Shown: positions 42,795-60,694 of the stretch, one piece after another
Position numbering within the stretch: position 1 is the first letter of the stretch
Layout: every line of letters starts with the position of its first letter
Source: a virus
Length of the DNA: 64,000 nt
Strand: one strand, 5' to 3'
Virus genome (UHGV): UHGV-1519562
Translations under genes and position numbers: made by a program
Notes under the pieces: model-generated
Databases searched by the model: none
What the model saw: the letters and a program-made list of their open reading frames with translations, nothing else
What the model was told of the DNA's origin: nothing

Positions 42795-42843
42795 AATTTT
42801 AAAGATTAAAGAAAATAACTTTTTAACAAAAGGAGAATTAACA

Positions 42844-43735: not shown

Positions 43736-43748
43736 AGGAGAGAAATAA

Positions 43749-44321: not shown

Positions 44322-44357
44322 AGCAAAGAAAGCTAGTCAATTACATTTATTAATGAC

Positions 44358-44809
44358 TTAGCTGTATTGTGGTGGAAAAATTAAAAGTCTTAAAGAATGG
44401 GAAGAAATTGTTAAGGAAAATAGTGCTAAAATAAGTATGTACTATAATAAAAATATTCAGCAAGAAAAATTAAGATTGATTAATGAAAGAATCAAAAAAC
44501 ACAATAAATCTATTTATGATTCTAAGGGAAGATTATTAAATATGACGATTAATAATATACTAAATTTTGCAAATATCTGATGAAGCTAGAGATGAATTAA
44601 TTACTATGCTTATTTTAAATGATAAAACTAAATTTAATACTACTCCTAATTAGGGCCAAGTGATAATATCATACAGAAAAATTTAAAATTATTATTACAA
44701 GGAAAAATGCCTTCTGCTAAAACTCAATTAGAAGGAGTTACAATAGCTTCATATGGATATAATAATGATAGACTGGCTGGAATTCTTTGTTTGAAGGATA
44801 GACTATGAA
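44358..44809 (+). pseudogene. decayed or frameshifted ORF: three protein-like fragments in different frames
   Basis: Fragments of about 73, 24 and 50 codons separated by frame changes and stops; no consensus promoter/leader. Confidence 0.3.
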
Positions 44810-45092
44810 AATTATTTATAGATTAGAAGATTCCGCAGGCAATGGGCCATTCTTTTATAGAAATGGCCAAAATAGAATTTTTCCTGATTTATTTTTTGAA
44901 GAAGATAGAGGATTACATGGTTTTATTAATAAAAATAGATTTAAAGAACCAAGTTATATAGAATTTTATAAGAGTTCTGATTTTTATTTATATAAAATAA
45001 AAATATCAAAAAGTTTGTATGAAAATAAATATGGAGAAATTTTATTTAATGAAAATGATATAATAAGCAAAAGGAGAATTAGAAAATGGTAA
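44805..45092 (+). CDS. hypothetical protein
   Basis: 95 aa ORF, AT-rich. Confidence 0.45.
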   Translation: MKIIYRLEDSAGNGPFFYRNGQNRIFPDLFFEEDRGLHGFINKNRFKEPSYIEFYKSSDFYLYKIKISKSLYENKYGEILFNENDIISKRRIRKW

Positions 45093-45502
45093 TATGTGGT
45101 TTTCCAGGAATAGGAAAAACTTTTACAGTTCAAAATTGGATTTATTCAAATATAAAAATTTATGATTCAGATAGTTCAAATTTTTCATGGATTGATAAAA
45201 ATGACCACTCCAAAGATTTTCCCACAAATTATATCGAGTATATTAAATCAATAGGTAATGAAAATAGCGTTGTTTTAACAAGTTCGCATAAAGAAGTGCG
45301 GGATGCCCTTAAAGCCGCAGGAATTAACTACTATGTTGTGTACCCCAATTTGGAAAGTTTTGGCAAAGATTTTTATTTAGATAGAATCTGCGGAAGGGAA
45401 AACGGCATTTATCCTGGAGACATTCGTTTTAAAGTAAATGATTGTTTTTGTAAAAGAGATAATGTAATTTGGATAGAAAGGGGGAGTTTTGATGAGGGAT
45501 AA
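45086..45502 (+). CDS. small P-loop NTPase (nucleotide-kinase-like)
   Basis: N-terminal Walker A GFPGIGKT, then hydrophobic strand with DSD. Confidence 0.5.
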   Translation: MVICGFPGIGKTFTVQNWIYSNIKIYDSDSSNFSWIDKNDHSKDFPTNYIEYIKSIGNENSVVLTSSHKEVRDALKAAGINYYVVYPNLESFGKDFYLDRICGRENGIYPGDIRFKVNDCFCKRDNVIWIERGSFDEG

Positions 45503-45848
45503 TAAATATTTTAAAAATCTTAAAGAAATTCCTTTTCCCTATGCGGAAAAAACTTATGCAGGACTAGACCAAAGAGATTGTTTTAATTTGGATACTTCTT
45601 TAATTGCTTGGCTTTATGAACATTTACAAGCTTATTATGATGAGGCCAATGTTAGTATTGATTTAATGGAGCATAAATATAATATTAATGGTGAAGAACT
45701 GAATGAGAAAGAGTGTATTTTTAGAATGATTGAAGATTGTAAAATTATTCTTGACACTTGGGAATATGAAAATTTTGCTGAAAGGAACGCAGCAAAAAAT
45801 GATTTATTTGATGTTTTGAAGGAATGTATTTGGAGTTTATGGTATTGA
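45489..45848 (+). CDS. hypothetical protein
   Basis: 119 aa ORF overlapping the previous stop. Confidence 0.45.
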   Translation: MMRDNKYFKNLKEIPFPYAEKTYAGLDQRDCFNLDTSLIAWLYEHLQAYYDEANVSIDLMEHKYNINGEELNEKECIFRMIEDCKIILDTWEYENFAERNAAKNDLFDVLKECIWSLWY

Positions 45849-46279
45849 TTTTAAATTTCTGCGAAATTTAAAATCAAAAAGAAAATTCGTTTTTTAAATT
45901 TAAAATTGACTTAACTCGTTGTTCAAATTTAAAAATGGTTTAGAGAGGGAAATGTCCAGGCCAAATGGTTTTTAATAACAAATATAATTTTTTTCCCGAA
46001 AACTACCCCGGAGTACGCCAAACCATTAAACTATCTTTCATTGGTAAATATCCATTGACCCCACAAAGGCCCCATCAAACAGCATCTTTTGTAAACAACC
46101 ATTCATTAATCAAAAGAGAAATGGTCTTGTCAATAGGCAAATTAAACAAAATTATTTTTCAGCAAAACGCATAAAGAAGAACTCTTAATTTCTTTTTCTT
46201 TTGTTTAATGCGTCAATAGACAAAAGACTATCTCAATGGTATAATAAATACAGAAATTAAGGAAAGGGGTCAATGACCT

Positions 46280-46627
46280 ATGAAAAAGTTCTTCTCTATC
46301 ATCGCTGTTCTGGCAATCGCTATCTCTGCTCTCACTACTTCTGCTTGCGCTCTCAACACTCCTGCTGAAAATGCCAGATACTGCGCAACAAACAGCATCC
46401 ACTATGGTATGAATACTGTTCGTCTGGTTCGCGCCACTGTTACTGCAACTCATGATGATGGATGTGTGACATTGAAAGACATGCGTGATGGCAACCTGTA
46501 CGCCATTGATGATGATGGCCTTGTGAAAGGTGAGGACGTTCTCATTGCTATTGACGACAATGCTACACCAGGTTTTGTCTATGATGACATGATTCTTGGC
46601 TTCTGGAATGGTTCTGCTCTTAAATGA
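46280..46627 (+). CDS. secreted / lipoprotein-like small protein
   Basis: Signal peptide MKKFFSIIAVLAIAISALTTSACA; GC-rich codon usage; consensus promoter/leader upstream; terminator downstream. Confidence 0.6.
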   Translation: MKKFFSIIAVLAIAISALTTSACALNTPAENARYCATNSIHYGMNTVRLVRATVTATHDDGCVTLKDMRDGNLYAIDDDGLVKGEDVLIAIDDNATPGFVYDDMILGFWNGSALK

Positions 46628-46648
46628 GCAGAACCATTTTCTTTTTTT
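46607..46648 (+). terminator. intrinsic terminator
   Basis: atggttctgctc / gagcagaaccat hairpin then T-run. Confidence 0.55.
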
Positions 46649-46733
46649 ATTTTATAAATAAATAAATGAAAAAGGTATTGACATTCTGGTTGAAGTATGG
46701 TATACTATAAATAACAAAAGGAGGAAAGATCAA

Positions 46734-46937
46734 ATGAAAAAGACTTTTGAGTTCTATGCTTGCTCACCTGTTAAGACATGGCGGAACAACTACCAGGGAG
46801 AAAGTTGGCAGTGGGCTAAAGTTCAATGGTTTCGCTTCCCTTCTGGTCTGCGCAAGTGTTTAGTCTTTCCTGATGGTCAGGCAATCAAGATTGAACTTTG
46901 TAAGGTTAAAAACAAAAGAGAGGTTAAGAAAGTATGA
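46734..46937 (+). CDS. hypothetical protein
   Basis: 67 aa; promoter TTGACA-17-TGGTATACT at 46678-46706, RBS AAAGGAGG. Confidence 0.55.
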   Translation: MKKTFEFYACSPVKTWRNNYQGESWQWAKVQWFRFPSGLRKCLVFPDGQAIKIELCKVKNKREVKKV

Positions 46938-47164
46938 AAGAGTTGTACATGATGTATAATAAACGCTATGCAACAGGTATAAGTTTTTATACAAATTATG
47001 AAACTGCTTTGTTAGCAAGATACATTGCTTGTATAAAGATATCTAAACATGAAAAAGACAATGTAATGACAGAGTTTAGCACAAAAGAAGTAAGACAAAA
47101 ATATTGTAAAGATTGGTTTAACATTCTTAATATTAAACAGTTGATGTTGGTAGGAAGGAGATGA
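46934..47164 (+). CDS. hypothetical protein
   Basis: 76 aa, start overlaps previous stop (ATGA). Confidence 0.45.
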   Translation: MKELYMMYNKRYATGISFYTNYETALLARYIACIKISKHEKDNVMTEFSTKEVRQKYCKDWFNILNIKQLMLVGRR

Positions 47165-47390
47165 AAAACTTCATCTCTTTCCTTTTGTTTAACATACTTG
47201 TTATAAACGAATGTCTTCGTTTTACAAGGCAACTTTCCGAATCAGTATACCACAAAGTCTGCTCAAAATCAATAGTCAAAATAGCTAAATTTAGAGGGAG
47301 AATTGGGATCCCGAATTGTGCAGTATGCCTATTGACCTATTGCGGCAAGTGTGTTATTATATAATTACAAAAGGAAAGGGGATAAAACAA

Positions 47391-47576
47391 ATGAAGAACA
47401 TCAAGAAGATCATTGGTGTCAAGATGGACAAAGCTAACAAGGCGATCCTTGACAAGTGGAAGGAATGGATCAAAGAAGAGGGCCGCGATGAAACCAGTAA
47501 GAATGACTTCGCTAACTATTACGCCAACTCTTATGAAGAGTATCAGCAGATTTGGGAAGTGGTTGAATGTTTGTAA
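47391..47576 (+). CDS. hypothetical protein
   Basis: 61 aa from ATG 47391 after promoter and AAAGGAAAGGGG leader. Confidence 0.5.
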   Translation: MKNIKKIIGVKMDKANKAILDKWKEWIKEEGRDETSKNDFANYYANSYEEYQQIWEVVECL

Positions 47577-47642
47577 AAAAGTCTTGACAAGAAGCTCAGT
47601 CTGTGGTATAATAAGACCATAACAAAAGAAAGGATGATTTTT

Positions 47643-48008
47643 ATGTTGAAAAAGACAGTCTACTTCTGTGAGTATTGCAGTGAGGTTTTTGAGGACTATG
47701 ACAGCTGCAACTTGCACGAGATGGAAGAAATGGCGAAGCGTTGTGAGGATAGCTTCAAGCTGTATGATAAGCTCGGCGAAGTCAAGCTCAACCTTAAGCT
47801 AATCCTGCACCTATTATTGCTATCTTGTGCGATGGTAATAAAGAAGCCGTTGAATTGCTCAAGCGCTATTTCATTAGCTTCGACCATAAAGCCCCTTCTC
47901 TTGCTCCGGGAGAAGAAGCCCTCTTGGTGCTCAATGAACGCACTGGTAACTGGTGCAATATTGATGAAGCCATTCAACAGCTTCAAGATTTGTTCTAAAC
48001 AGCAATGA
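47643..48008 (+). CDS. hypothetical zinc-finger-like protein, possibly frameshifted near 47795 (downstream part looks better in another frame ending 47997)
   Basis: N-terminal CEYC...C..H; promoter TTGACA-17-TGGTATAAT at 47584-47612; alternative frame 47798-47997 is open and protein-like. Confidence 0.4.
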   Translation: MLKKTVYFCEYCSEVFEDYDSCNLHEMEEMAKRCEDSFKLYDKLGEVKLNLKLILHLLLLSCAMVIKKPLNCSSAISLASTIKPLLLLREKKPSWCSMNALVTGAILMKPFNSFKICSKQQ

Positions 48009-48089
48009 AAAAGGAAAGTTTTGCGGCCTTCCTTTTTCTTTTATTTGTATTGTGTAAGTTTTTATTCTTAATTTGTGCATTTTTACCTA

Positions 48090-48123
48090 TTGACATCTTC
48101 CCAAAATTATGTTATTATATAAT
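48090..48123 (+). promoter_or_regulatory. about 45-bp promoter module (copy 1 of 2 near-identical copies; second at about 55852)
   Basis: ttacctattgacatcttcccaaaattatgttattatataatca versus ttacttattgacattttcccaaaattatgttattatataatca. Confidence 0.5.
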
Positions 48124-48149
48124 CAAGATAAAGAAAGGGGAAACAAAAG

Positions 48150-48482
48150 ATGATTAACAAGGAACTGTTCGACAGCCGGTACACCACAACCTACTATGAA
48201 AGCGCTTATGTGCTTCACGATGGAGACTTGACTCTCTACTATCCCAACTGCGGTTATGACCCTGAGAAAATCATGGTCTGGAAGATTACTGCTGAGGATT
48301 ACCGCTTTTATGGCAAAGGCGCTCTGAAAGAACTGCTGGAAGTTCTTTACAAGGAAGCTGCTCCTGAGTTGGTGGCTCTGGTTGATAGCAAACTCCGATT
48401 GGCAACTAACGACGAGGAATGTGCTACGCTTGTTAAGCACAAGTATCCCAACGACAAACAGCGCTACATTGACATGTGGTAA
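48150..48482 (+). CDS. hypothetical protein
   Basis: 110 aa, GC-rich codon usage, RBS AAAGGGGAAA. Confidence 0.55.
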   Translation: MINKELFDSRYTTTYYESAYVLHDGDLTLYYPNCGYDPEKIMVWKITAEDYRFYGKGALKELLEVLYKEAAPELVALVDSKLRLATNDEECATLVKHKYPNDKQRYIDMW

Positions 48483-48503
48483 AAAGTAAAGGAGCTGATT
48501 AGA

Positions 48504-48725
48504 ATGATAACAATCTTTCACAAAGCAGGTATTGCTTTCAGGGGAGAATATCTCCGGGAAGCTTGCAGGAAGAACTACGATTGGCTTACTTTAATGTATG
48601 CCGTTGAAGATTATAACCGCGCTGTGAAGCGTTACTACAAGTATGTTTCTCGTCACCACGCAGTTATCCTTAACAAATATCCTTCTGGCGATGTTATCGC
48701 TCTTGAAGAAGGAGTAATTCTATAA
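48504..48725 (+). CDS. hypothetical protein
   Basis: 73 aa, RBS AAAGGAG, terminator downstream. Confidence 0.5.
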   Translation: MITIFHKAGIAFRGEYLREACRKNYDWLTLMYAVEDYNRAVKRYYKYVSRHHAVILNKYPSGDVIALEEGVIL

Positions 48726-48750
48726 GGGCCGCAAGGCCCTTTTTCTTTTT
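48724..48750 (+). terminator. intrinsic terminator
   Basis: aagggcc gcaa ggccctt then T-run. Confidence 0.6.
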
Positions 48751-48854
48751 TGCTATATGCTTATATAGTGAAACTTCTAGGCTTCTAGCGAAAAAAAAAT
48801 AAATAAAAATTTTTTTGTTTAATTTACCTATTGACACCAAAGAAAAAGTATGGT

Positions 48855-48930
48855 ATAATAATTGCGGCGGCGCGCACACGACCATGGCTTTCCAATGCGC
48901 GCCGAAATTCTGTCAATACGCAAATTGCAC
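48855..48930 (+). repeat. GC-rich stem-loop intergenic element, copy B (directly downstream of a promoter)
   Basis: cggcgcgc ... gcgcgccg stem (48858-48894), then aaattctgtcaatacgcaaattgcacaa box. Confidence 0.5.
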
Positions 48931-49092
48931 AAAAATTTAGAGGAAAGTTTGGTGATTTTGCCCAGAAGTATTCATCCCGAAATGGTATTTGTTTATAAAA
49001 AGTATAGCGGCAAAACATTATCAAAATTGATTATTGAATTTCTTAAAAAATTTTGTTATAATAATTACAGAAAACAAAAGGAGGTCAAAAGT

Positions 49093-49254
49093 ATGGCTGA
49101 ATACCGTGACTGGCTGGTAGTTTTCCCCAATGGTGGGCAGATACATTTTGATAACAAGGGTATCGCAATGCAGAACGCAACCCGCAAGAAAGGCTTTGTC
49201 TATGAGTGTCATCTGGAAGAGAATGGGAATGAAACTCTCATTCATATCTTTTGA
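49093..49254 (+). CDS. hypothetical small protein
   Basis: 53 aa from ATG 49093 after promoter and AAAAGGAGG; the longer track ORF from 48862 runs over promoter and repeat. Confidence 0.5.
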   Translation: MAEYRDWLVVFPNGGQIHFDNKGIAMQNATRKKGFVYECHLEENGNETLIHIF

Positions 49255-49269
49255 TAGGAGGTATTGCGT

Positions 49270-49449
49270 ATGAAGCAGACTTATTCTATCTATCATGCAG
49301 GCGATGAAGAAATTATCGGGCCTTTTGATTCCTTTTCATTGGCAGAGGATTTCTTTCATAGGTTAGCTCAGTATGCTACTACAATGTATTACTTGGTAGA
49401 TGATTCTACTGGTGAAATTCTTCTTGATATTGAAGAAATTAAGGCTTGA
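49270..49449 (+). CDS. hypothetical small protein
   Basis: 59 aa from ATG 49270, RBS TAGGAGG. Confidence 0.5.
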   Translation: MKQTYSIYHAGDEEIIGPFDSFSLAEDFFHRLAQYATTMYYLVDDSTGEILLDIEEIKA

Positions 49450-49507
49450 CATTTGGGCCTTACCGTGGTATAATTACCATAGAAACAAAGGAAAGAGGTT
49501 GATACTT

Positions 49508-49963
49508 ATGACTGACAAAATGTTGGCTTTTGATATGGACGGCACTATTGCTGACCTGTATGGGGTTAATGGTTGGCTGTCTAAGCTGCGGAAGGAAGAT
49601 GCAAGCCCTTACCTGGAAGCTAAACCCATGTGGGATGTGGATAAGCTCAACGAGCTTATCAATAAACTAAAGCAGGCTGGTTGGGAGATTGCAATCATCA
49701 CTTGGCTTTCTAAAGAAAGCAGCCCTGAGTATGCAAAGACTGTGCGAGAAGCTAAAAAGGCTTGGCTCTTGAAATGGGGTTTCCCCTATGACCACTTTCA
49801 TGGTCTAAAGTATGGAGCCACTAAAGCGGATGCTGTTCGTAGAAAAGCATCTAAGGCAATTCTTATTGATGATAATAAGAAAGTTCGTGACAGTTGGCAT
49901 TTAGGAGAAACTGTTAATCCTGAAACTTGTAACATCATTGATTTTTTGGCTTCCCTGCTTTAA
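49508..49963 (+). CDS. HAD-superfamily 5'(3')-deoxyribonucleotidase-like hydrolase
   Basis: Motif I AFDMDGTIADL (DxDGT) and motif IV ILIDDN; promoter and AAAGAGG leader upstream. Confidence 0.65.
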   Translation: MTDKMLAFDMDGTIADLYGVNGWLSKLRKEDASPYLEAKPMWDVDKLNELINKLKQAGWEIAIITWLSKESSPEYAKTVREAKKAWLLKWGFPYDHFHGLKYGATKADAVRRKASKAILIDDNKKVRDSWHLGETVNPETCNIIDFLASLL

Positions 49964-50045
49964 GCAGGGAGTCAAAAAAGTTCTTGACAAATGAGAAAAA
50001 ATCTGGTATAATGAGTACAGAAATTAAGAAAGAGGTAGATGCAAC

Positions 50046-50741
50046 ATGAGTATTGACAAGCGCAGACATTACGTTCTGCTTCTGGACACTGAGACAGCAA
50101 ACACCATCACTGACCAAAAAGGCCGATTAGACATGACCTCAGTTCTTGTCTATGATTGCGGGTGGTGTGTTATGGACACAAGAGGAAATATCTATAAGGA
50201 ACAATCCTTTGTTAATCGAGATATTTTCTTTGATGAAAGTGAGCTTATGAAATCCGCCTACTACGCGGAAAAGATTCCCCAGTATCTGGAAGATATTCGA
50301 CAGGGCATCCGACAAGTAGCTAACACTTACCAGATTCGACAGACTATGCTTGCAGACATGGCAGAATATGGTATTACAGAAGTAGTTGCCCACAATGCAA
50401 GATTCGACCTGAACGCATTGAATTTACTTCAACGCTGGACTACCAAAAGTAAATACCGCTATTGGTTCCCCTATGGTACCGATTTTTGGGATACTCTCAA
50501 AATGGCAAGAGATGTTATTCTAAAGATGCCTACCTATAAAAGGTTCTGTGAACAACACGGTTTTTTAACCAAAACTGGTAAACTCTCAGCAACAGCAGAA
50601 AATCTGTATAGATTCATCACCAAAGACCCTACTTTTCAGGAAGAACATAAAGGTCTTGACGATGTGCGGATTGAGCGGGAGATTATGATTTACTGCTATC
50701 GGCAAAAGAAGAAAATGCGGAAAAAACTTTTTGAAAATTAA
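50046..50741 (+). CDS. DEDDh (DnaQ-like) 3'-5' exonuclease
   Basis: Exo I LLLDTETA, Exo II VAHNARFDL, Exo III HKGLDDVRIERE; promoter at 49984-50012. Confidence 0.7.
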   Translation: MSIDKRRHYVLLLDTETANTITDQKGRLDMTSVLVYDCGWCVMDTRGNIYKEQSFVNRDIFFDESELMKSAYYAEKIPQYLEDIRQGIRQVANTYQIRQTMLADMAEYGITEVVAHNARFDLNALNLLQRWTTKSKYRYWFPYGTDFWDTLKMARDVILKMPTYKRFCEQHGFLTKTGKLSATAENLYRFITKDPTFQEEHKGLDDVRIEREIMIYCYRQKKKMRKKLFEN

Positions 50742-50749
50742 AAAACCGC

Positions 50750-50778
50750 TTGACAAAACAAAAGGAAAATGATATAAT
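50750..50778 (+). promoter_or_regulatory. promoter with about 85-nt structured leader
   Basis: TTGACA-17-GATATAAT; leader has a hairpin (gaggg...ccctc) and the motif tagggtagcgacctaccgcacagaaagg. Confidence 0.5.
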
Positions 50779-50862
50779 ATAAGAGAAGTGAGGGAAAGAA
50801 AACCCTCTCCACTTCCTTAACAATTAGGGTAGCGACCTACCGCACAGAAAGGAATTGATATT

Positions 50863-51219
50863 ATGACTAACGAGAAGAAGATTACTAACAAGGGCGCCCT
50901 TCAGTATGTTCTGGACAACTGCGAGATTCCTGCCGACGTTCGTGCCAAGATTGAGATTCTGCTCCATCAGCAAGAGAACAAGAGCCGTGGTAGTGGTAAG
51001 CCTACTGCAACTCAGACTGAGAACGCACGTCTGATTGAAGTGATTGCCGACACTCTGCCCAAGGGCGAGGCTTTCACCATCTCCGACATTACCAAGACCA
51101 TTCCTGAGCTGAACGGCTTTACCCCTCAGAAGGTTGGCCCCATGCTCAAGAAGCTGGTTGAAACTGGCCGAGCCACCCGTGACACTAACAAGGGCAAGGC
51201 ATATTATACTATGGTGTGA
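50863..51219 (+). CDS. hypothetical protein, paralog family 1 (copy 1)
   Basis: 118 aa; shares TQTEN..LIE and IPEL.GFTPQKVGPM motifs with 54200..54616; GC-rich codon usage. Confidence 0.6.
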   Translation: MTNEKKITNKGALQYVLDNCEIPADVRAKIEILLHQQENKSRGSGKPTATQTENARLIEVIADTLPKGEAFTISDITKTIPELNGFTPQKVGPMLKKLVETGRATRDTNKGKAYYTMV

Positions 51220-51229
51220 TAATTGAATA

Positions 51230-51258
51230 AAGAGGGGCATTAAGCCCCTCTTTATTTT
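51230..51258 (+). terminator. intrinsic terminator
   Basis: aaagaggggc atta agcccctcttt then T-rich. Confidence 0.5.
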
Positions 51259-51278
51259 CTCAAAAAGGATGGTGTTTA

Positions 51279-51641
51279 ATGATAGATGAAGCTAGGGTTA
51301 AACATCTTCAAAAGGTGTTAGACCTTGATAGAAAACAAGCTTTAGCGGTTATTGCCGATGATGAAGCAATAGATAAAGGTGCAGACCTTTTCCCACTTAC
51401 TGATGAACAAAAGAAAGTAGAAAAGAAAATGCGGTTATCCGGCAAAGAGAAAGGCAAGTACACTATGAATGCTCCCCGACAGCGCAAGGTTGACAATGAC
51501 AAACATCGCTTGATTGAGATTATTGCGGAATCTCTTGAACAGCTTGAAATTGAAACTACCATCAATAACCCAGAGCGAGAAATTGAGATAGTTTTTAATG
51601 AAAGACGTTTCAAAATTACATTAAGCGCTCCTAGAAAATAA
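51279..51641 (+). CDS. hypothetical protein, paralog family 2 (copy 1)
   Basis: 120 aa; C-terminal NPEREIEIVFNERRFKITL matches NPERQIAFSVDNNAFELTL of 54647..55030. Confidence 0.6.
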   Translation: MIDEARVKHLQKVLDLDRKQALAVIADDEAIDKGADLFPLTDEQKKVEKKMRLSGKEKGKYTMNAPRQRKVDNDKHRLIEIIAESLEQLEIETTINNPEREIEIVFNERRFKITLSAPRK

Positions 51642-51645
51642 TAAC

Positions 51646-51683
51646 AAAACCGGCTTATTTTTTATAAGCCGGTTTTGTTTTTT
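51646..51683 (+). terminator. intrinsic terminator
   Basis: aaaaccggcttat / ataagccggtttt then T-run. Confidence 0.6.
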
Positions 51684-51699
51684 GTCTAATACTTCTTAA

Positions 51700-51800
51700 T
51701 GACAAATGTTTGGCGGCCCGCGCATGGTCAAGCGCTGCCGCATTTCAATTATACCAGGTAATCCGACTTTTGTCAATGGGCAAACCGCACAATTATTTAA
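51700..51800 (+). repeat. GC-rich stem-loop intergenic element, copy C
   Basis: tttggcggcccgcgc atggtcaa gcgctgccgc, then aattatacc and ttttgtcaatgggcaaaccgcacaa box; promoter follows. Confidence 0.5.
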
Positions 51801-51894
51801 CCTTTTGTTTTCCCAAAATTGGTGATTCTACCTATTGATTTTTTTATTAAAATTTTATATAATATAATTGTTCCAAGGGAAAGGAGAAACAAAA

Positions 51895-52089
51895 ATGAAG
51901 ATTAATTACAAATCTTTCAGCGTGGAAGTTTTTGGTGAGAACATTTGGGGCCAAACCTATCTGAACAGAGTGGGCTTTGATTCTGAGGAAGAAGCCGATA
52001 AGTTTATTGAGTCTCTGGAAGAGGAAGAAGGAGTTTATTCGGCAATTAAAATTGTAAATACAAGTTATAATTTCAGAAAAAACCCTTGA
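51895..52089 (+). CDS. hypothetical small protein
   Basis: 64 aa from ATG 51895 after TTGATT-17-TATAAT promoter and AAAGGAG. Confidence 0.5.
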   Translation: MKINYKSFSVEVFGENIWGQTYLNRVGFDSEEEADKFIESLEEEEGVYSAIKIVNTSYNFRKNP

Positions 52090-52146
52090 CAAACAAACCA
52101 AGACGTGTTATAATAAATACAGAAATTAAGAAAGAGGTTGACAATT

Positions 52147-52257
52147 ATGAATGAAAATAAGACTACTCCTTGGTATATCTATCAGCCGGGCAAATGGAGC
52201 TACTTCTTATTTCTAGTTCCCTTGATTCTTCTCATTCTTATCTTTATAAGTACCTAA
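52147..52257 (+). CDS. small hydrophobic peptide (single TM helix), below the ORF-track size cutoff
   Basis: 36 aa MNENKTTPWYIYQPGKWSYFLFLVPLILLILIFIST with consensus promoter/leader (aatacagaaattaagaaagaggttga). Confidence 0.45.
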   Translation: MNENKTTPWYIYQPGKWSYFLFLVPLILLILIFIST

Positions 52258-52292
52258 AAGATACTTATAAAAATCTGGATTGTCTTCAAAAA

Positions 52293-52312
52293 GGCTTGAC
52301 AAACGTCAAGCC
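52293..52312 (+). promoter_or_regulatory. palindromic operator overlapping -35 (GGCTTGACAAACGTCAAGCC)
   Basis: Perfect 20-bp palindrome containing the TTGACA box; second copy CTTGACATACGTCAAG at 52750-52765. Confidence 0.5.
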
Positions 52313-52348
52313 GAGTGGTATAATAATAACAGAAAGAGGTTGATATAA

Positions 52349-52492
52349 ATGATTTCTACTATTGCTCTGGCTTCCCTGGCTGCCATTATGATGGTGAAGG
52401 TGTTCGTTGCGGTTGAGCGTGAGGATTACCGCAAAATGTTTGTCAGCGGATTTGAGTTTGCTCTTCTGCTTCTGACTTTAGCTAATATTTAA
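52349..52492 (+). CDS. small membrane peptide
   Basis: 47 aa MISTIALASLAAIMMVKVFVAVER...FEFALLLLTLANI; RBS and promoter. Confidence 0.45.
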   Translation: MISTIALASLAAIMMVKVFVAVEREDYRKMFVSGFEFALLLLTLANI

Positions 52493-52505
52493 GGAGGTAA
52501 ATATA

Positions 52506-52754
52506 ATGAGAATTTATTCCATTAAACATCTGTTCGACAAAGAAGTTGCTGGTTTTTATCGAGAAATGAAAGAAAGCGTTGAAACAAAAGAAGAAGTAGA
52601 AAATGCTGTTTATCTGGTAACGGGTATGCAGGTTATGGCAAGTATTATTGCCGAAGGAAGTGATGAAGAGGTTCTTGCCATTGAACATGAAACTTGGGAT
52701 TATTGGGTTCCAAAGTTTAAGAAACTTCTGGAAAATCTTCCTGAAAAGGCTTGA
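52506..52754 (+). CDS. hypothetical protein
   Basis: 82 aa, RBS AAGGAGG. Confidence 0.5.
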   Translation: MRIYSIKHLFDKEVAGFYREMKESVETKEEVENAVYLVTGMQVMASIIAEGSDEEVLAIEHETWDYWVPKFKKLLENLPEKA

Positions 52755-52810
52755 CATACGTCAAGTTCTATGATATAATAAAGCCATAATAAAGAAAGGA
52801 AGTCGATACT

Positions 52811-53011
52811 ATGACTAAAGAGGAATTCTTAGACACTTTGCAGGAGGTCGGCTATGAATGGAGCAGAACGCTCAATGAGCACAAGTATGACTACTCGGAT
52901 TTCGAGTGGAAGATGCTTGGTTGGTTAGCTGGTGAATTGATTGACCATTTCGACCAAGCAATTGATTCAATTCGTGATGAACTTCAGGAGGAGGAGGAAG
53001 AGGAAGAATGA
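52811..53011 (+). CDS. hypothetical acidic protein (poly-Glu tail)
   Basis: 66 aa ending EEEEEEE; promoter with palindromic -35 at 52750. Confidence 0.5.
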   Translation: MTKEEFLDTLQEVGYEWSRTLNEHKYDYSDFEWKMLGWLAGELIDHFDQAIDSIRDELQEEEEEEE

Positions 53012-53256
53012 GAATGATAGAAAAGATTGAGAGATTCTTTCTTCTTGATGAAGAAGAAAGAACAATTCTCAAGAAAGCTGGAAGCATTTTGTATGACATG
53101 GGAGAAGCTATTGATAGCTCTGGAAGAGTTTCCTTATTCTATGCAAAATTTACTGAGCCGATTGAAAAAATCCGAAACTACGATGAAGGAAACTTTTATG
53201 ACCTTTCAGATTTATTGACTGTTCTTTCTAAAAAAGAAAGAATTGATATTGAATAA
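53008..53256 (+). CDS. hypothetical protein
   Basis: 82 aa, overlapping start. Confidence 0.45.
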   Translation: MRMIEKIERFFLLDEEERTILKKAGSILYDMGEAIDSSGRVSLFYAKFTEPIEKIRNYDEGNFYDLSDLLTVLSKKERIDIE

Positions 53257-53271
53257 AGAAAGGATAGATAC

Positions 53272-53430
53272 ATGGAAAAGTATTGTTTTGTAGTTATGAC
53301 TACTGACGAAGGTATTGATGCTCCAGAGATGGTTTATCTTAATAAAGAAGCGGCTATAAAAGCGGCTGAGGCTCTTCAAAACGAAAGAGAAGAAGATTGT
53401 TGGGTAGAAAAAGTACAGTTTATTAAATGA
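53272..53430 (+). CDS. hypothetical small protein
   Basis: 52 aa MEKYCFVVMTTDEG...; RBS AAAGGA; terminator downstream. Confidence 0.4.
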   Translation: MEKYCFVVMTTDEGIDAPEMVYLNKEAAIKAAEALQNEREEDCWVEKVQFIK

Positions 53431-53438
53431 TATTAAAA

Positions 53439-53464
53439 ATAAGGGCCTTTGGCCCTTATTTTTT
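53439..53464 (+). terminator. intrinsic terminator
   Basis: aataagggcc ttt ggcccttatt then T-run. Confidence 0.6.
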
Positions 53465-53520
53465 ACTTGACAGATTTTTCTTTCTATGTTATAATAACAA
53501 TAGAAAAGGAGTGAAGCAAA

Positions 53521-53724
53521 ATGACAGATTTTGCAAGAGCTGAAATTCTTCTTAAAGCTTTACAGGAAGCAGGAAGATATATGCGGAAATATTTACCCGC
53601 AGAAATGCCTCTGGGTGAAGATGCCGATATTACAAGATACTGTTTGATAAATGGTAATCAAGACCCAGAAGGCTCTAAGTTTGTAGAATACTTCATTCTT
53701 AAAGCATTTGACAGTTACAAGTAA
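53521..53724 (+). CDS. hypothetical protein
   Basis: 67 aa; promoter, leader and RBS AAAAGGAG. Confidence 0.5.
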   Translation: MTDFARAEILLKALQEAGRYMRKYLPAEMPLGEDADITRYCLINGNQDPEGSKFVEYFILKAFDSYK

Positions 53725-53747
53725 GGGCTAAAAGCCCTTACTTTTTT
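53721..53747 (+). terminator. intrinsic terminator
   Basis: gtaagggct aaa agcccttac then T-run. Confidence 0.6.
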
Positions 53748-53754
53748 ATTTTTA

Positions 53755-53880
53755 TATTTGTTATAAACAAAAGTCAAGTGATAGCAAAGTTTGGCGGCGC
53801 GTTGATGGCTGACATGCGCCGCAATTTAATTATACCCCAAGCCACGCCTTTTGTCAAGAGTTAAACTGCACAAAATCTAT
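53755..53880 (+). repeat. GC-rich stem-loop intergenic element, copy D
   Basis: ttgttataaacaaaagt..tttggcggcgcg ttgatggctgacat gcgccgc aatttaattatacc ..ttttgtcaag..gcacaa. Confidence 0.5.
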
Positions 53881-53940
53881 TTGAGGAAAATCCCGCTTTT
53901 TGTATAATTTGCCTATTGCAATTTGGGTGAAATCTGATAT

Positions 53941-54110
53941 AATAAATAATGTCAGGAGGGAGTAGCCCAAGAAATCCTAGGGCGGCCGACCTGTGAGAAA
54001 GTATAGGAAGTAAACGAAATACATCAAGTGGTAAGTCTTATATCATGTGGTAATTGTTATTGCCCAACATGCTCTGGAAGCCGTAAATCTTGTGAAAAGT
54101 TTGCGAAACC
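53941..54110 (+). ncRNA. promoter-proximal transcribed non-coding segment (leader or small RNA) with the conserved tagggcggccgacctgtgagaaag motif
   Basis: Between promoter about 53905-53940 and promoter 54113-54141; no ORF with start and RBS; holds a Cys-rich 48-codon frame without RBS. Confidence 0.3.
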
Positions 54111-54199
54111 TCTTGACAAACCCCAAGAAACGTGCTATAATAAGCATGTAATCAAGAGAAGGACAAACTCTTAAAAACCAGAAAGCGAGATAGGTGTTT

Positions 54200-54616
54200 A
54201 TGGAAAATACTAACAAGAGAATTACTAAGCGTGAGCGTTTCCAGTCTCTGATTGAGCTGGTGGAACTGTGCGAAGGCCGTGAAGACGAAGGCTTTGACTT
54301 TGAGGGTCTGACCGATTTCCTCTCCAACGAGATTCGCCTGCTGGAAGCTAAGAAGGGTTCCAATTCCCGCAAGCAGACTGTTCGCCAGACTGAGAATGAG
54401 CATTTTAAGGCTCTGATTGCTGAGCAGTTGACCGAAGAGGGCATGACCATTGCAATGCTCCGCAAGGCCATTCCTGAACTGGAAGATTTAACTCCCCAGC
54501 GTATTGCCCCTATGTGCAAGGCTCTTGTTTCTGAGGGCATTGCTTACAAGGATACCCACAAAGGTATTGCCCACTTTTACAAGGCGCAGGCCGTGGTAGA
54601 AGAGGAAGAGGGCTAA
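54200..54616 (+). CDS. hypothetical protein, paralog family 1 (copy 2)
   Basis: 139 aa from ATG 54200; paralog of 50863..51219; ends EEEEG with stop inside a hairpin. Confidence 0.6.
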   Translation: MENTNKRITKRERFQSLIELVELCEGREDEGFDFEGLTDFLSNEIRLLEAKKGSNSRKQTVRQTENEHFKALIAEQLTEEGMTIAMLRKAIPELEDLTPQRIAPMCKALVSEGIAYKDTHKGIAHFYKAQAVVEEEEG

Positions 54617-54646
54617 GGCCCTCTTCCCTAGAGGGGAGGTATATTT

Positions 54647-55030
54647 TTGGACAAAGCAAAAGAAGCAATCGCAAGAATCCAAGCCGGCATCAAGTGCAGT
54701 TATGAAAAAGCAGTAGAAATCTATAAGGCAGATTGCGAGGTTGATAAAGGCATCCCGCACGAATGGGATTTGACCGAGGAACAGCAAAAGGTAGCAAAGA
54801 AATACACCATTACCGGACAACACACCAAAAAGCATGACCGCAAGACCCCTATTAAAAGAGAAAGGAAGGAAAACCCCACTAAGGCAAATTTGATTGCGGA
54901 ACTTGCAGGTTTTCTTGAATCTTTGGGGATTTGTGACGTAAAAATTGCAAATCCTGAGCGACAGATTGCTTTTTCTGTTGATAATAACGCCTTTGAGCTG
55001 ACTTTAGTTCAGAAAAGGGCCAAAAAGTAA
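54647..55030 (+). CDS. hypothetical protein, paralog family 2 (copy 2)
   Basis: 127 aa; paralog of 51279..51641; RBS GAGGGGAGG. Confidence 0.6.
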   Translation: MDKAKEAIARIQAGIKCSYEKAVEIYKADCEVDKGIPHEWDLTEEQQKVAKKYTITGQHTKKHDRKTPIKRERKENPTKANLIAELAGFLESLGICDVKIANPERQIAFSVDNNAFELTLVQKRAKK

Positions 55031-55719: not shown

Positions 55720-55830
55720 TTATAAGCAAAAGTAAAGTAATAACAAAACTCGGCGGGCCGCGCTTGGTGGATGCGGCCCGAATTCGCGTCAATATACATT
55801 TTCCACAATTTTTCTGCTTTTGATTTGTAC
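55720..55830 (+). repeat. GC-rich stem-loop intergenic element, copy E
   Basis: cttgttataagcaaaagt..cggcgggccgcg cttggtggat gcggcccg aattcgcgtcaatatac..ccacaa; perfect 8-bp stem cgggccgc/gcggcccg. Confidence 0.5.
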
Positions 55831-55987
55831 AATTTTACTTATTGACATTTTCCCAAAATTATGTTATTATATAATCACAAAAGGAAAGGAGATTTAAAAA
55901 TTTCAAAAAAAAAATAAAAAAAGGTCTTGACAAACCAGGGCAAAGATGCTATAATGAATACAGAAATTAAGGAAAGAGGTTGATAGT

Positions 55988-57714: not shown

Positions 57715-57915
57715 ATGTTGAAAACTGAATTTGCCAGAAAGCTGGACTCGACTGGTCGATTAGTTATTCCTTCTAAGCTAAGAGATTATCTAGGAATGGA
57801 AACCGGCCAGTTGTTTACTTTTTATGTTCAAAAAGAAGAAAATGGAGATGTGTATTTGTGTGTGAAGTGTCCTAGTAATAAAATAAAATTTACTTTTGGT
57901 GAAAATGCCGATTGA
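57715..57915 (+). CDS. AbrB/MazE (SpoVT-AbrB) family DNA-binding protein
   Basis: ARKLDSTGRLVIPSKLRDYLGMETGQ matches the AbrB N-domain signature; no obvious RBS. Confidence 0.6.
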   Translation: MLKTEFARKLDSTGRLVIPSKLRDYLGMETGQLFTFYVQKEENGDVYLCVKCPSNKIKFTFGENAD

Positions 57916-57940
57916 CATAAGGCTGGTTTTATGGTATACT
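57912..57940 (+). promoter_or_regulatory. consensus promoter driving a non-coding GC-rich region
   Basis: TTGACA, 17 nt, extended -10 TGGTATACT. Confidence 0.55.
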
Positions 57941-57946
57941 ATATAT

Positions 57947-58091
57947 AAGGAGTGGCGGGCTGTGGACAGTGGTCACAGCCCGAAATCCCCTTTCCACTAG
58001 CATATGGCGATTTTTCTAGACTTCTAGCGACCCTTCATATGGCCGGGGTTTTTCCCGAAAGTGGCTCACCCGCTCGGAAAAAATTTTTTTT
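57947..58091 (+). ncRNA. candidate structured small RNA (GC-rich, about 145 nt)
   Basis: Perfect stem gggctgtg/cacagccc (57957-57981), ccgggg and gcggg/cccgc pairing, ends in a hairpin plus A/T run; no ORF with usable RBS spacing; GC far above local background. Confidence 0.4.
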
Positions 58092-58148
58092 AATTTGTCA
58101 AGTCAAAGTCCGCATTTGACTTTTTAAAAATTTAAGGCATAAAAAAAA

Positions 58149-58199
58149 ATCAACTTGACTTTTCAAAAAACAAAAGAAAAAAATAAAAGTCAAGTTGAT
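58149..58199. repeat. inverted repeat atcaacttgactttt / aaaagtcaagttgat in a cluster of TTGAC/GTCAA motifs
   Basis: 15-bp perfect arms with a 21-nt spacer; additional gtcaagtc and tttgactt at 58097-58122. Confidence 0.5.
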
Positions 58200-58293
58200 T
58201 AATAATTAAAATTATTATATAATATTTATATAAACAAAAGGAAAAAGAAAAGAGAAGCACATATGCCCGCTCGGCTTGTTGAAAGTGGGAGTG

Positions 58294-58926
58294 TTATTTA
58301 CACTTCCATTTTTTAACTAAAACCGGTATATCATTATACTTTTCTTTAAATCTATTCATTGCGTTCTTGTAGAACTGCAGTTCGGTAGAGATATCTTCTC
58401 CTTGCGCTTGGCGGTAAAAAGCATTGGCTGCTTCTTCTTCACCAATCTTCTCTTCAGAGAGAATTGCGCGCCACTCAGTAACGATTGCTTCATCCATAAC
58501 CTCATAGGTTGAGTAAAAACACCAATACTGATTTCCATCGCTAATGCCAAATTTATTAAATGGCTCTTTGATGTATCTTTCAGTTACAGCTTTATAGGAT
58601 GTATGATTATATTTTTCATAACCAAAATCCGCAATAGCATCTCTAGCGATTTTACTCTTACTATTAGGTTTAAATTCAGTACCTAAAGCGGCAACAGTGA
58701 ATTTTTCGTAATCTTTTTTCTTTTGTTTAGTTTGGGCAGTTCTTAAAGAAGGGATTATATCGGGCATTTCACCTTTAATTTCATAAGTATATCTGCCTGT
58801 ACTGGACTTAGTTTCAGTTATATCCATATATTCTTGAAGATGAAGCATTAATTCATCATGTTTGTTAGCCCAAACATTATGTGAGATAGAATATCTTTTA
58901 TTAAGTTCTTTTCTAGTAATTATCAT
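58294..58926 (-). CDS. hypothetical protein on the opposite strand (regulator or replication-protein candidate)
   Basis: 210 aa with RBS AAGGAG; only minus-strand gene in the early region; flanked by about 0.4 and 0.65 kb of non-coding repeat-rich DNA. Confidence 0.55.
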   Translation of the reverse strand: MIITRKELNKRYSISHNVWANKHDELMLHLQEYMDITETKSSTGRYTYEIKGEMPDIIPSLRTAQTKQKKKDYEKFTVAALGTEFKPNSKSKIARDAIADFGYEKYNHTSYKAVTERYIKEPFNKFGISDGNQYWCFYSTYEVMDEAIVTEWRAILSEEKIGEEEAANAFYRQAQGEDISTELQFYKNAMNRFKEKYNDIPVLVKKWKCK

Positions 58927-59130
58927 TTTTGTTAAATCTCCTTAAATAAAATTTATAGAATTTTCATTCTACTACTAATATATAAATTTTAAATAAGAAA
59001 GATTTAACAGAAATGATCTAAAAAAATTGATCTACTTTTTGTGTATGTGGTTATATATATTGGTATACACAAAAAATAGATCAAAAATCTTGTACTCATT
59101 GATGAACAGTACATTAAAACTGAACTAAAA

Positions 59131-59182
59131 TTAGCTTCATTTTTATCCTACCACTTACACAAAAATGAAGCTAATTTTTTTT
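59131..59182 (+). terminator. long hairpin plus T8 tract
   Basis: ttagcttcattttt / aaaaatgaagctaa arms with 16-nt loop, then tttttttt. Confidence 0.45.
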
Positions 59183-59335
59183 AAATACTTGTCTACCAAA
59201 ATTTACTCTAGTATATATACACAGTAAATTTTCGTAGATAACTTTGCCTTCTCAGATAATAAGTACACAATATTTAATTAAAAAAATGAATTTCTATTAT
59301 TTATTTCACTTCACTACTCTACTTATAATAACGTA

Positions 59336-59400
59336 AATAAGTCATCCTTTGGATGACTTATTTACTAAGGAATAATAAATCGACCTTTGGTCGATTTATT
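59336..59400. promoter_or_regulatory. twin 27-bp perfect palindromes (operator-like)
   Basis: aataagtcatcc ttt ggatgacttatt and aataaatcgacc ttt ggtcgatttatt, 11 bp apart. Confidence 0.5.
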
Positions 59401-59578
59401 ATTCCATTAACTTTTCTCTCTCACTTTCAATTTTCCCTTCAGAAATTGTGAGTTCCATTCCCCAATTTTTTCCAAATGAAAATTCAAAATAACCACTCCC
59501 CTATATCCGCAATTGAAAATATTAAAAAATTATTATATAATATATATAGAAAAACAAAAGGAAAGGAATTAAAAATTT

Positions 59579-60115
59579 ATGTCTACTTATAAGATTAATG
59601 ATTGCTGTAACGCCTCTACTGCCGAGCTTAACTCCTCTTGTAACTGCAAGACTACTATGAAGTTTGAGGATTATATCATGGATGAGCTGCGCAAGGGCAA
59701 GTCTATGGATGAGATTATGAAGTATATCTCTGAGCGAGTCAATGCCGTGGAGTCTACTTTTAAGGCAGAGCAGAATAAGAAGAAGAGTTTTTGGTTGGTG
59801 AAGACTCCTGTTGAGGGTGATAGAGATTTCATTTTTGGTAATCTGCATGTAAAGATTAATGATGCTCTTGTTCATTTGAGTAATGGTAAGATTACTACTG
59901 AGGATTTTATTATTCTTTTTATTGAGGGTCTTTATCAGATTGCTCCTGCTATGCGCCCTATGCTTGATGAGATTAGTCTTGATGATGATAGTATTAGTCT
60001 TTTGACTGAAAGCATGGATAAGGTGAATAAGCTTTTCTCTGTTGCTAAGGCTTTTAGCAATGAGATTGATGATGACGCAGAAAGAATTAATAAGTTTTTG
60101 GATTCTCTACTGTAA
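59579..60115 (+). CDS. hypothetical protein with N-terminal Cys cluster
   Basis: 178 aa; DCCNASTAELNSSCNCK near the N-terminus; consensus promoter/leader; terminator downstream. Confidence 0.55.
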   Translation: MSTYKINDCCNASTAELNSSCNCKTTMKFEDYIMDELRKGKSMDEIMKYISERVNAVESTFKAEQNKKKSFWLVKTPVEGDRDFIFGNLHVKINDALVHLSNGKITTEDFIILFIEGLYQIAPAMRPMLDEISLDDDSISLLTESMDKVNKLFSVAKAFSNEIDDDAERINKFLDSLL

Positions 60116-60133: not shown

Positions 60134-60236
60134 ACAGAGGTTGAAAATAAGCGAAAATTGAAGATTGGTGAATACATTAAGCGGGAATTAAAAAATTGCA
60201 TAGTGAGTTAGATGAGTGTTGCGCAGAGCACATCTC

Positions 60237-60390
60237 TATTTTTAATTATTTTATCTATATTTTATCTATATTTTAATTATTTTTAATAAAAAGCACATCT
60301 CTATTTTTAATTATTTTTAATTATTTTATCTCTATTTTTAATTATTTTAAGATATTTTAATTATTTTTAATAAAAAGCACATCTCTCTAA
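60237..60390. repeat. AT-rich tandem repeat array (iteron-like)
   Basis: Units starting gcacatctct at 60237, 60293 and 60376, filled with sub-repeats tttttaattatttt and ttatctatatttta. Confidence 0.6.
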
Positions 60391-60694
60391 TTCGTAAACC
60401 CCTTCCTTTAATCTTCTTTATTTCCATTGAAAAAATAACTTTTAAGGTGATTTTAAATGAATAAAATAGTAATTTTCCCCACTAAGCCATTGCAAAAAAT
60501 CTTTCGATGAAGAAAAACGTTATATCACGAACCAACCGAGAGAATAAACATAAATACACCAATCCCATTCTACTAATGCAATTAATTTCCATTCTAAATA
60601 ATTAATTCTTAAAGACTTCTCAAAATGAGAAGTCTTTATTTTTTTAAAAAAATATTATATAATATATATAGAAATTAAGAAAGGGTTGAAAAAT

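Follow-up and report, generated by a model that had tools for sequence, protein, structure and literature searches.

A conserved hairpin and promoter cassette, repeated across the early region of an uncultivated gut phage and linked in its best-conserved copy to a single gene

The 64,000-nucleotide (nt) stretch of the virus genome UHGV-1519562 analysed here (the window) carries, at positions 57912-58293, a non-coding region enclosed by an AbrB/MazE/MraZ-like open reading frame (ORF) and by an ORF of 210 amino acids (aa) on the opposite strand (Table 1). An original prediction had described this region as a GC-rich structured RNA candidate driven by a consensus promoter. Judged by sequence comparison, the region is the best-conserved ('master') copy, here called the primary element, of a cassette of ~125 nt that is repeated in the early region of these phages. 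We hold with moderate confidence that it is a composite regulatory cassette which in this genome would be transcribed, from a promoter cassette lacking a gene, into a non-coding leader of ~145-180 nt. A transcript leader combined with a promoter module is more likely than a free-standing, elaborately folded small RNA.

All the local features that drew attention to the region are present. The near-consensus promoter (P1) has a -35 hexamer that overlaps the stop codon of the AbrB/MazE-like ORF; in the relative L004 both hexamers are identical and the spacer has four substitutions. P1 belongs to the promoter and ribosome-binding-site cassettes repeated in the window (families D4/D6, with 57469, 59531 and 60653). 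The AAGGAG that follows has the look of a ribosome-binding site left behind by a promoter cassette that lost its gene, and may serve as a polypurine element at the 5' end; no suitably spaced start codon after it opens a conserved frame. Three nucleotides further on begins hairpin H1, predicted as a perfect stem of 8 base pairs (bp) between GGGCTGTG (57957) and CACAGCCC (57974), each of which occurs once in 64 kb, and extended by a flanking C-G pair to 9 bp (57956-57964 with 57974-57982). The unusual GC content is equally real, 57954-58073 having 55.8% GC against 31.6% for the window, the second-highest value of any 120-nt stretch (99.9th percentile); the other GC-rich peaks inspected (~51.1 and 54.2-54.7 kb) lie in or beside coding genes.

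Table 1. Coordinates of the primary element, its neighbours and the secondary copies described in the text.
Feature	Position	Strand	Remarks
Copy E	48831-48996	+	Perfect TTGACA-17-TG-n-TATAAT 4 nt upstream of H1-type hairpin
Copy C	51707-51832	+	Covariance model; perfect minus-strand promoter (51776 to 51748) stops 6 nt short of hairpin
Copy D	53788-53873	+	Perfect minus-strand promoter (53857 to 53829) aims into hairpin (53795-53823)
Copy B: H1-type hairpin; TTTTCCCAAAA box inside TTGACA-17-TATTAT spacer	55747-55872	+	32.8 bits, E 6e-8
AbrB/MazE/MraZ-like ORF, 66 aa (PHROG 'antitoxin')	57715-57915	+	Immediately before the element; partner toxin gene absent
Promoter P1: TTGACA (57912-57917), 17-nt spacer, TG-n-TATACT (57932-57940)	57912-57940	+	11/12 plus extended -10
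AAGGAG	57947-57952	+	At predicted transcript 5' end
Hairpin H1: CGGGCUGUG / CACAGCCCG, 9 bp, 9-nt loop	57956-57982	+	Folds and covariation
Conserved linear part: GAAAU, variable stretch, first CATATG (58001-58006), T-rich tract, CTAGCGAC	57983-58035	+	Alignment
Second CATATG block and box: CATATGGCC, six variable bases, TTTTCCCGAAA	58036-58060	+	~50 homologues
Weak hairpin AGUGG/CCGCU, then A6 (58078-83) and T8 (58084-91)	58057-58091	+	Folds
Hairpin AAGTCAAA/TTTGACTT, then T5	58100-58125	+	Fold
15-bp inverted repeat, then U9; terminator of 210-aa gene	58141-58199	-	Fold z = -3.4
Orphan promoter cassette TTGATT-17-TATAAT (58195-58223), family D2	58195-58312	+	Promoter scan
Terminator hairpin, 14 bp, overlaps stop codon of 210-aa gene	58281-58312	+	z = -2.7
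ORF of 210 aa, function unknown	58294-58926	-	Bounds the element on its 3' side
Linked gene	59579-60115	+	Same family downstream of the primary element in every clade

Close relatives of the region are 88-97% identical and too similar to be used for covariation. A 17-mer scan of viral contigs brought out a distant version in contigs of 96-145 kb, which has the same promoter, a hairpin of different sequence, two CATATG motifs 35 nt apart and the same 3' block; the loci L015, L016, L018, L021, L022 and L019 from the same scan were set aside as chance matches to coding or iteron regions. A degenerate pattern search of viral, metagenome and genome collections then yielded ~50 true members (41 distinct 140-nt sequences), including contigs of up to 193 kb and two small contigs from metagenome-assembled genomes (MAGs; Eubacteriales, Christensenellaceae). 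The order of blocks, as read from an alignment of 22 representatives, is H1, GAAUUUCC, a variable stretch that often contains CCGATCGG, CCAUAUGSAAAAUUUUUG, ..CUAGCG.., UCAUAUGGCC, six variable bases and UUUUCCCGAAAG. No variation is seen in the first ATATG or in the TT of the T-tract, neither of which any search pattern demanded. In copies that were fetched through the neighbouring protein the box TTTTCCCGAAA and the hairpin are kept, as is the first CATATG block; GGCC in the second such block varies. The spacing of CATATG motifs beyond the first pair ranges from 31 to 224 nt, and other clades have further CATATG and CCGATCGG palindromes.

The ~600 nt of DNA after the primary element in L023 (2910-3540) are non-coding, and the palindrome CCGATCGG occurs four times (2832, 3031, 3113 and 3448) across the element and this following stretch; CCGCTCGG of the window may be its counterpart. 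Many contigs have one of their ends no more than a few hundred bases away from the primary element (e.g. L041, L073, L017, L033, L044, L061 and L070), which suggests an assembly break point caused by repeats, by strain variation or by a physical end.

These comparisons bear on two readings of the region. Among 185,579 bacterial genomes the conserved core has eight matches, six of them unrelated chance matches and two the small phage-like MAG contigs with the whole element; since the core is essentially absent from bacterial genomes, the attachment-like site that had been put forward is unlikely and, on the sequences compared, effectively excluded. The same applies to a small encoded protein, either from the 55-codon GTG frame or as a micro-ORF from the conserved ATG (MAxxFPE...). 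The GTG frame is open in the window, and the six variable bases are constant in length and free of in-frame stops in the sampled copies, but there is no ribosome-binding site at usable spacing, the GTG frame overlapping its own AAGGAG, and the ATG frame ends after 8 to 39 codons according to the clade. Frames are broken between clades by gaps of 1-5 nt that are not multiples of three, no protein family matches, and the hairpin covaries in a non-coding pattern. The absence of an ORF at sensible spacing from a ribosome-binding site, as first noted, therefore stands, and there is next to no likelihood of a small protein.

H1 is the only part of the element with covariation support. In a sample of 66 distinct 29-nt hairpins taken from both primary and secondary copies, pairing holds in 83% of cells (63% in shuffled alignments), and the covariation score of 0.484 compares with 0.153 for the shuffles, none of 500 reaching it, and with 0.07-0.16 for slid controls. 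Nine of ten pairs have changes on both sides, and across the copies dozens of different hairpins have a constant size. Folding with covariation against homologues, proposed as a check along with the original prediction, has accordingly given a strong result for this helix, and for this helix only: RNAalifold retains H1 and a 6-bp pairing between the two invariant CATATG palindromes (total -7.4 kcal/mol), and invariant pairs are uninformative on structure either way. The fold of the whole region is unexceptional (z = -1.5 for 151 nt and -2.0 for 189 nt). The structured RNA candidate thus survives as one helix maintained by compensatory changes and not as a multi-helix structure, the 'further complementary blocks' being either invariant CATATG palindromes or not conserved. 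The Rfam-style covariance search also suggested as a check found nothing, Rfam 15 giving no match at gathering score in the window or in eight related loci and only chance-level matches (<19 bits) at E up to 10; no tRNA or tmRNA was found.

Several more elaborate structures or binding sites were tried and rejected. Per-sequence folds give no consistent partner for a helix enclosing the TTTTCCCGAAAG stretch. The others were checked by reading the aligned sequences only: a pseudoknot joining the loop of H1 to the variable linker, UAUGG...CCCGAAAG read as a GAAA tetraloop with its receptor, and a K-turn all fail across clades, a sigma-54 promoter lacks the conserved G of the -12 GC, and the half-sites of a CodY box are one base too far apart.

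The primary element is tied to one gene (the linked gene). In all 14 loci that were fetched via the linked protein alone and had enough flanking DNA, the primary element lies 580-700 nt upstream of that gene; a three-sequence alignment served for fetching, the full protein alignment having no stretch conserved enough. The family consists of helical proteins of 120-180 aa with a GxSxxEI-like N-terminal motif. Its window member, of 178 aa, has no match in a protein search of 50,697 isolated-phage records, profile searches against Pfam, PHROGs and the PDB were uninformative, giving neither a family nor a solved relative, and its AlphaFold model is poor, with a predicted local distance difference test (pLDDT) score of 52. 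The 210-aa antisense gene stands between element and linked gene in the window clade only; it appears to have been inserted there, bringing its own terminator and an orphan promoter cassette. Gene-less cassettes of this kind are found at 55842 and 58195. The window and L017 have p155, p38 and AbrB in different orders, with elements lying between them, and in L017 a 44%-identical AbrB/MazE-like homologue likewise precedes a copy of the element.

This linkage bears on whether the region specifies a stand-alone, trans-acting small RNA of ~145-180 nt that would pair with phage or host mRNAs through its conserved single-stranded stretch. Such an RNA would have its own strong promoter, a conserved and apparently unpaired sequence and no ORF, and in the window there is no downstream gene on the same strand for it to lead. 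In other clades, however, the same sequence is a leader upstream of a gene and not a separate unit, and it runs on into promoters and that gene; it is moreover one member of a multi-copy, promoter-associated family, and no convincing complementary target was found in the window. Nor is its 3' end conserved. The A/T run lies where it had been described, with no strong terminator hairpin ahead of it, and the segment from the weak hairpin to this run has a 15-nt insertion and substitutions in L004 and L006. The predicted P1 transcript would most likely end at the next hairpin, the one followed by T5 (Table 1), giving an RNA of ~180 nt. This hairpin was not called by the terminator scan because the scan needs at least three G-C pairs and the stem has two, and one of its arms is deleted in L004. 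An intrinsic terminator that is both conserved and the element's own is thus lacking, none being called after the element, and with the invariable linkage to one downstream gene and the membership of an intergenic family an independent small-RNA gene is not supported; we regard a trans-acting RNA as quite unlikely.

A covariance model built from the primary copies detected weaker, secondary copies of the cassette, at least five in the window, between 45.9 and 55.9 kb (45981, 48861, 51707, 53788 and 55747), and one to six in many related loci. On the same strand as the primary element lie 58 of them, against three on the opposite strand, and these three are the reverse complement of H1 itself. 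All of them precede the primary element; none was found beyond it, not even in loci with 7-12 kb of sequence on that side. Each sits between the terminator of one gene and the next unit of promoter, ribosome-binding site and gene. The box TTTCCCGAAA is phased with the promoters of these copies. When promoters scoring at least 10/12 are considered for 53 secondary copies, with related subfamilies falling within the offset classes, the box lies inside the -35/-10 spacer in 21 (offset -11; TTGACA-n-TTTCCCGAAA-nn-TG-n-TATAMT), 10-12 nt ahead of the -35 hexamer in nine (offset +11) and 33 nt ahead of it in 13 (offset +33). A promoter of this quality follows within ~230 nt in 41 of the 53, while 37 of 40 primary copies have no downstream promoter. 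The steps of 22 bp suggest a factor site on one face of the DNA next to RNA polymerase, and this phasing argues that the 3' motif noticed at the outset is primarily a promoter element. Its recurrence also becomes clearer in part. In the window CCCGCTCGG is present only at 58069 and 58266, and GAAAGTGG on the plus strand only at 58057 and 58281, as had been stated; the first GAAAGTGG overlaps the end of the box and the second is the 5' arm of the 14-bp terminator hairpin, leaving only the repetition of CCCGCTCGG unexplained.

The phased box could also belong to a cluster of DNA operators. A repressor or activator of the phage, perhaps the product of the linked gene acting on its own expression, would then recognise the TTTCCCGAAA box together with the CATATG palindromes and switch the early promoters, or would halt elongation from P1 as stoperators do; the RNA would have no function of its own. 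The linkage to one gene and the common orientation of the copies would fit this, as would the three CATATG(G/C)C sites of the region (58001, 58036 and 58260) and the additional palindromes of other clades. It leaves unexplained why the pairing of H1 is kept while its sequence changes, however, and it has to accommodate a linked protein with no detectable DNA-binding fold and the wide variation in CATATG spacing past the first pair. We consider operators an unlikely explanation, if one still to be reckoned with.

Promoters not only follow the cassette, they also point into it. The promoter-into-hairpin layout is found in 21 of 40 distinct primary copies, which bears out the promoter-driven part of the original prediction; the end of the -10 element is 2 nt from the hairpin in 13 of these and 15-16 nt in eight, the window copy included. 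Among secondary copies, eight have a plus-strand promoter whose -10 element ends 2-4 nt from H1, and 19 of 54 have a minus-strand promoter ending 6 nt from its other side. The distance is thus 2-6 nt in 40 copies and 15-16 nt in eight, start sites being predicted from geometry, and the simplest common denominator would be that transcripts from either strand open with a hairpin. H1 is followed by GAAAU or GAAUUU with no U-tract and is not called by the terminator scan; canonical terminators stand upstream of copies C and D and, as read from the sequence, of copy B.

A hairpin in this position recalls regulatory RNAs of the nut, put or TAR kind, whereby a phage protein, possibly that of the linked gene, would read the 5' hairpin together with the linear sequence and alter early elongation or termination. 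The conservation of pairing and not of sequence, the location of the hairpin at or near the predicted transcript start in many copies and the strict linkage to one conserved gene are compatible with this, and the many terminators after early genes would make read-through control meaningful. Against it stand the loops and stems, which are too variable for one sequence-specific reader, the many copies that have no upstream promoter, and the behaviour of the box as a DNA promoter element in the paralogues; neither a second conserved helix nor a boxA-like element has been established, and the linked protein has no recognisable RNA-binding domain. On balance such an RNA seems to us a little less credible than operators, and unlikely.

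The reading that we favour, a composite cassette of the early region, would combine two parts. The first is GC-rich H1, constant in size and with its pairing kept, its sequence being free to change. Consensus sigma-A promoters placed directly against it on either strand would start transcription at the hairpin or a few bases before it, so that H1, as a stem-loop at the RNA 5' end, would protect or insulate early transcripts; reached from upstream, it could perhaps act as an attenuator. The second part is the conserved linear stretch ending in the box TTTTCCCGAAA, which in the paralogues would be a promoter element at the DNA level, sited either between the -35 and -10 hexamers or 22 or 44 bp upstream of that position. 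A single conserved small gene follows the master copy in the other clades. Three changes would distinguish the window: the gene-less cassette of promoter and ribosome-binding site (57912-57952) fires into H1; the downstream promoter of the element has decayed, GTGGCT (58061-58066) occupying the position of the TTGACA or TTGACT -35 hexamer of other clades; and the opposite-strand 210-aa gene has been inserted ahead of the cognate gene. With these changes the product would therefore be a non-coding leader RNA of ~145-180 nt, ending near the A/T run or at the hairpin with T5.

Several points weigh against this composite cassette. The transcripts are predicted from sequence alone and their start sites from promoter geometry, about half of the copies have no strong promoter adjoining H1, and a gap of 2 nt would place the start inside the 5' arm and shorten the helix. 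Neither a stabiliser nor a promoter role explains the high conservation of CATATG in the primary copies, 37 of 40 of which have no downstream promoter. The invariance of CATATGGCC and of TTYCCCGAAA is partly imposed by the search pattern, and copy counts and offset classes include related sequences that are not independent events. Finally, H1 folds better as the plus strand in 48 copies and as the minus strand in 24, a moderate preference, and it might therefore act instead as a DNA cruciform or as single-stranded DNA. It is also conceivable, though improbable, that the hairpin at starts on either strand, the 22-bp-phased TTTCCCGAAA box and the linked helical protein together form an undescribed system of early-gene control, with the linked protein or a host factor reading the box or the nascent leader to switch a battery of promoters.

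The AT-rich DNA on the 3' side of the core is particular to the window clade. A third CATATG-containing stretch directly follows the core in other clades; in the window an AT-rich block, containing the minus-strand terminator and the orphan promoter cassette, lies between them, and the order after the orphan promoter is third CATATG, CCCGCTCGG, GAAAGTGG and the plus-strand terminator hairpin. The orphan cassette would yield a plus-strand RNA of ~85 nt, antisense to the 3' end of the 210-aa gene and terminated at the 14-bp hairpin, with a 17-codon ORF (MPARLVESGSVIYTSIF) behind a poor ribosome-binding site. Upstream of the 210-aa gene is an intergenic region of ~650 bp (58927-59578). It holds a palindrome of 58 nt (59027-59084), an inverted repeat with perfect arms of 18 nt (59127-59144 / 59161-59178) and terminators placed back to back (59333-59405). 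Just past the linked gene (60220-60400), AGCACATCTCT occurs three times (60227, 60292 and 60376) within tandem AT-rich repeats (TTTTAATTATTTT...), which could be iterons, an origin or a binding array, and repeat-rich DNA of different sequence lies past the homologous gene in L046 and L076.

Priming of replication by transcription is familiar from ColE1, T7, T4 and the lactococcal phage c2, and transcription from P1 through the GC-rich segment into the AT-rich repeats (58078-58260) might serve the same end. The succession of a promoter, a GC-rich structured segment and a stretch of ~25% GC with inverted GTCAA repeats would suit such an origin, as would the iteron-like repeats after the linked gene (60227-60386) and the repeat-rich DNA found there in other clades. 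The element family is multi-copy, however; the AT-rich block is specific to the window clade and largely accounted for by the terminator of the 210-aa gene and the orphan promoter cassette, and no replication genes lie nearby in the window, L023 or L025. We judge an origin very unlikely, and the priming or processing element mentioned in the original prediction is conceivable but finds no specific support among the results.

The setting of the cassette is an early region extraordinarily dense in perfect consensus promoters. Minus-strand phage structural genes occupy 3.5-42.6 kb of the window, and a long run of small plus-strand genes extends from 42.7 kb on. The large terminase shares 47% identity with those of Enterococcus phages (~135-140 kb) and 46% with its counterpart in Geobacillus phage E3; the window region has no DNA relatives among 50,697 deposited isolated-phage records, in which the consensus of another clade likewise found nothing or chance matches only. 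The lineage consists of large uncultivated phages whose hosts are probably gut Firmicutes. Within the 12.5 kb between 42.5 and 55 kb there are 13 perfect (12/12) promoters, mostly with an extended -10, of which only two are on the minus strand, both abutting H1-type hairpins (copies C and D). Promoter-like sites number 67 in 42500-55000 against 40.5 +/- 6 expected, and terminator-like sites 23 against 8.8 expected; the stretch looks like an early region of host-takeover style composed of single-gene transcription units.

The minus-strand promoter of copy C (TTGACA-17-TG-n-TATAAT) is followed ~60 nt further on by a bidirectional terminator (51679 to 51643), a layout (51640-51776) that would suit a small RNA of ~100 nt on the minus strand, opening with a hairpin and closed by a terminator; copy D has no clear minus-strand terminator beyond its hairpin. 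Two paralogous genes in the same stretch (50863-51219 and 54201-54616) have ~50-57% GC, far above the rest of the phage, each following a perfect promoter and a structured leader, and they have in common the terminal motif ...IPEL..TPQ...P....LV..G.... At 53916-54110 the promoter TTGCAA-16-TG-a-TATAAT is followed by ~150 nt of GC-rich non-coding DNA (GGAGGGAGTAGCCC...GGGCGGCCGACC), a possible further leader or small RNA candidate, with the next perfect promoter at 54113.

Phages of this lineage, of 100-190 kb, are common in gut metagenomes, the element and the linked gene are found in no isolate, and nearly all genes of their early regions are of unknown function. The cassette offers a handle on early-region transcription in these phages and a marker that delimits a shuffled early-gene array, the master copy being always last in the array. 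It also provides compact, testable parts for Firmicutes, namely a start-site hairpin and a promoter box; a hairpin that functioned at transcript starts in both orientations would be an unusual and portable design for stable transcripts.

Comparison with known systems places the cassette among several regulatory elements. The antitermination RNAs nut of phage lambda and put of HK022 are likewise hairpin-containing RNA elements close to an early promoter; the hairpins here are larger, variable in sequence and present in many copies per genome, and neither a second conserved helix nor a boxA was found. The stoperators and operator arrays of temperate phages, such as mycobacteriophage L5 (cluster A) and the C1 operators of P1, resemble the box in being short asymmetric motifs, repeated many times in one orientation to transcription and overlapping or flanking promoters. 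Here, in contrast, no repressor was identified, there are almost no prophage copies (two small MAG contigs among 185,579 genomes), and the box is placed at discrete 22-bp steps, more like the site of a factor contacting RNA polymerase.

Stem-loops at the 5' terminus and polypurine elements are established stabilisers of mRNA in E. coli and B. subtilis (references in the review PMC3997798), the examples listed in that review including ompA and papA of E. coli and the aprE leader and SP82 polypurine element of B. subtilis (PMC3997798). The cassette has in common with them a stable hairpin at or a few bases from the transcript start, as predicted here from promoter geometry, the AAGGAG polypurine at the predicted 5' end in the window, and the maintenance of pairing over sequence. 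It differs in that half of its copies have no adjacent strong promoter, and the conserved 90 nt beyond the hairpin have no counterpart in those stabilisers. The closest described thing, by analogy of its parts, is the PeSL (promoter-early stem-loop cassette) of T4-type phages, in which a GC stem-loop is repeated among ORFans together with an AT-rich stretch and a sigma-70 early promoter (Arbiol et al., 2010, PMC2839356; Comeau et al., 2014, PMC4122927). In those phages it has been demonstrated to drive as well as terminate transcription and to bring about the shuffling of genes (PMC2839356; PMC4122927). The same three ingredients, the early promoter being of the consensus sigma-70 type and the stem-loop GC-rich, are combined here in a composite repeat whose many copies are scattered among small genes without known function; relatives differ in the genes found between copies, and orphan cassettes occur, so that gene shuffling at the cassettes may be surmised from synteny only. 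No relationship in sequence is expected, and the hosts here are probably Firmicutes, those of the PeSLs Proteobacteria. The hairpin here has no U-tract and is therefore not an obvious terminator, and promoters often aim into it at fixed distances. The cassette possesses an additional conserved box in phase with the promoter, and conservation is far higher in one of its copies, which is bound to a specific gene, than in the others.

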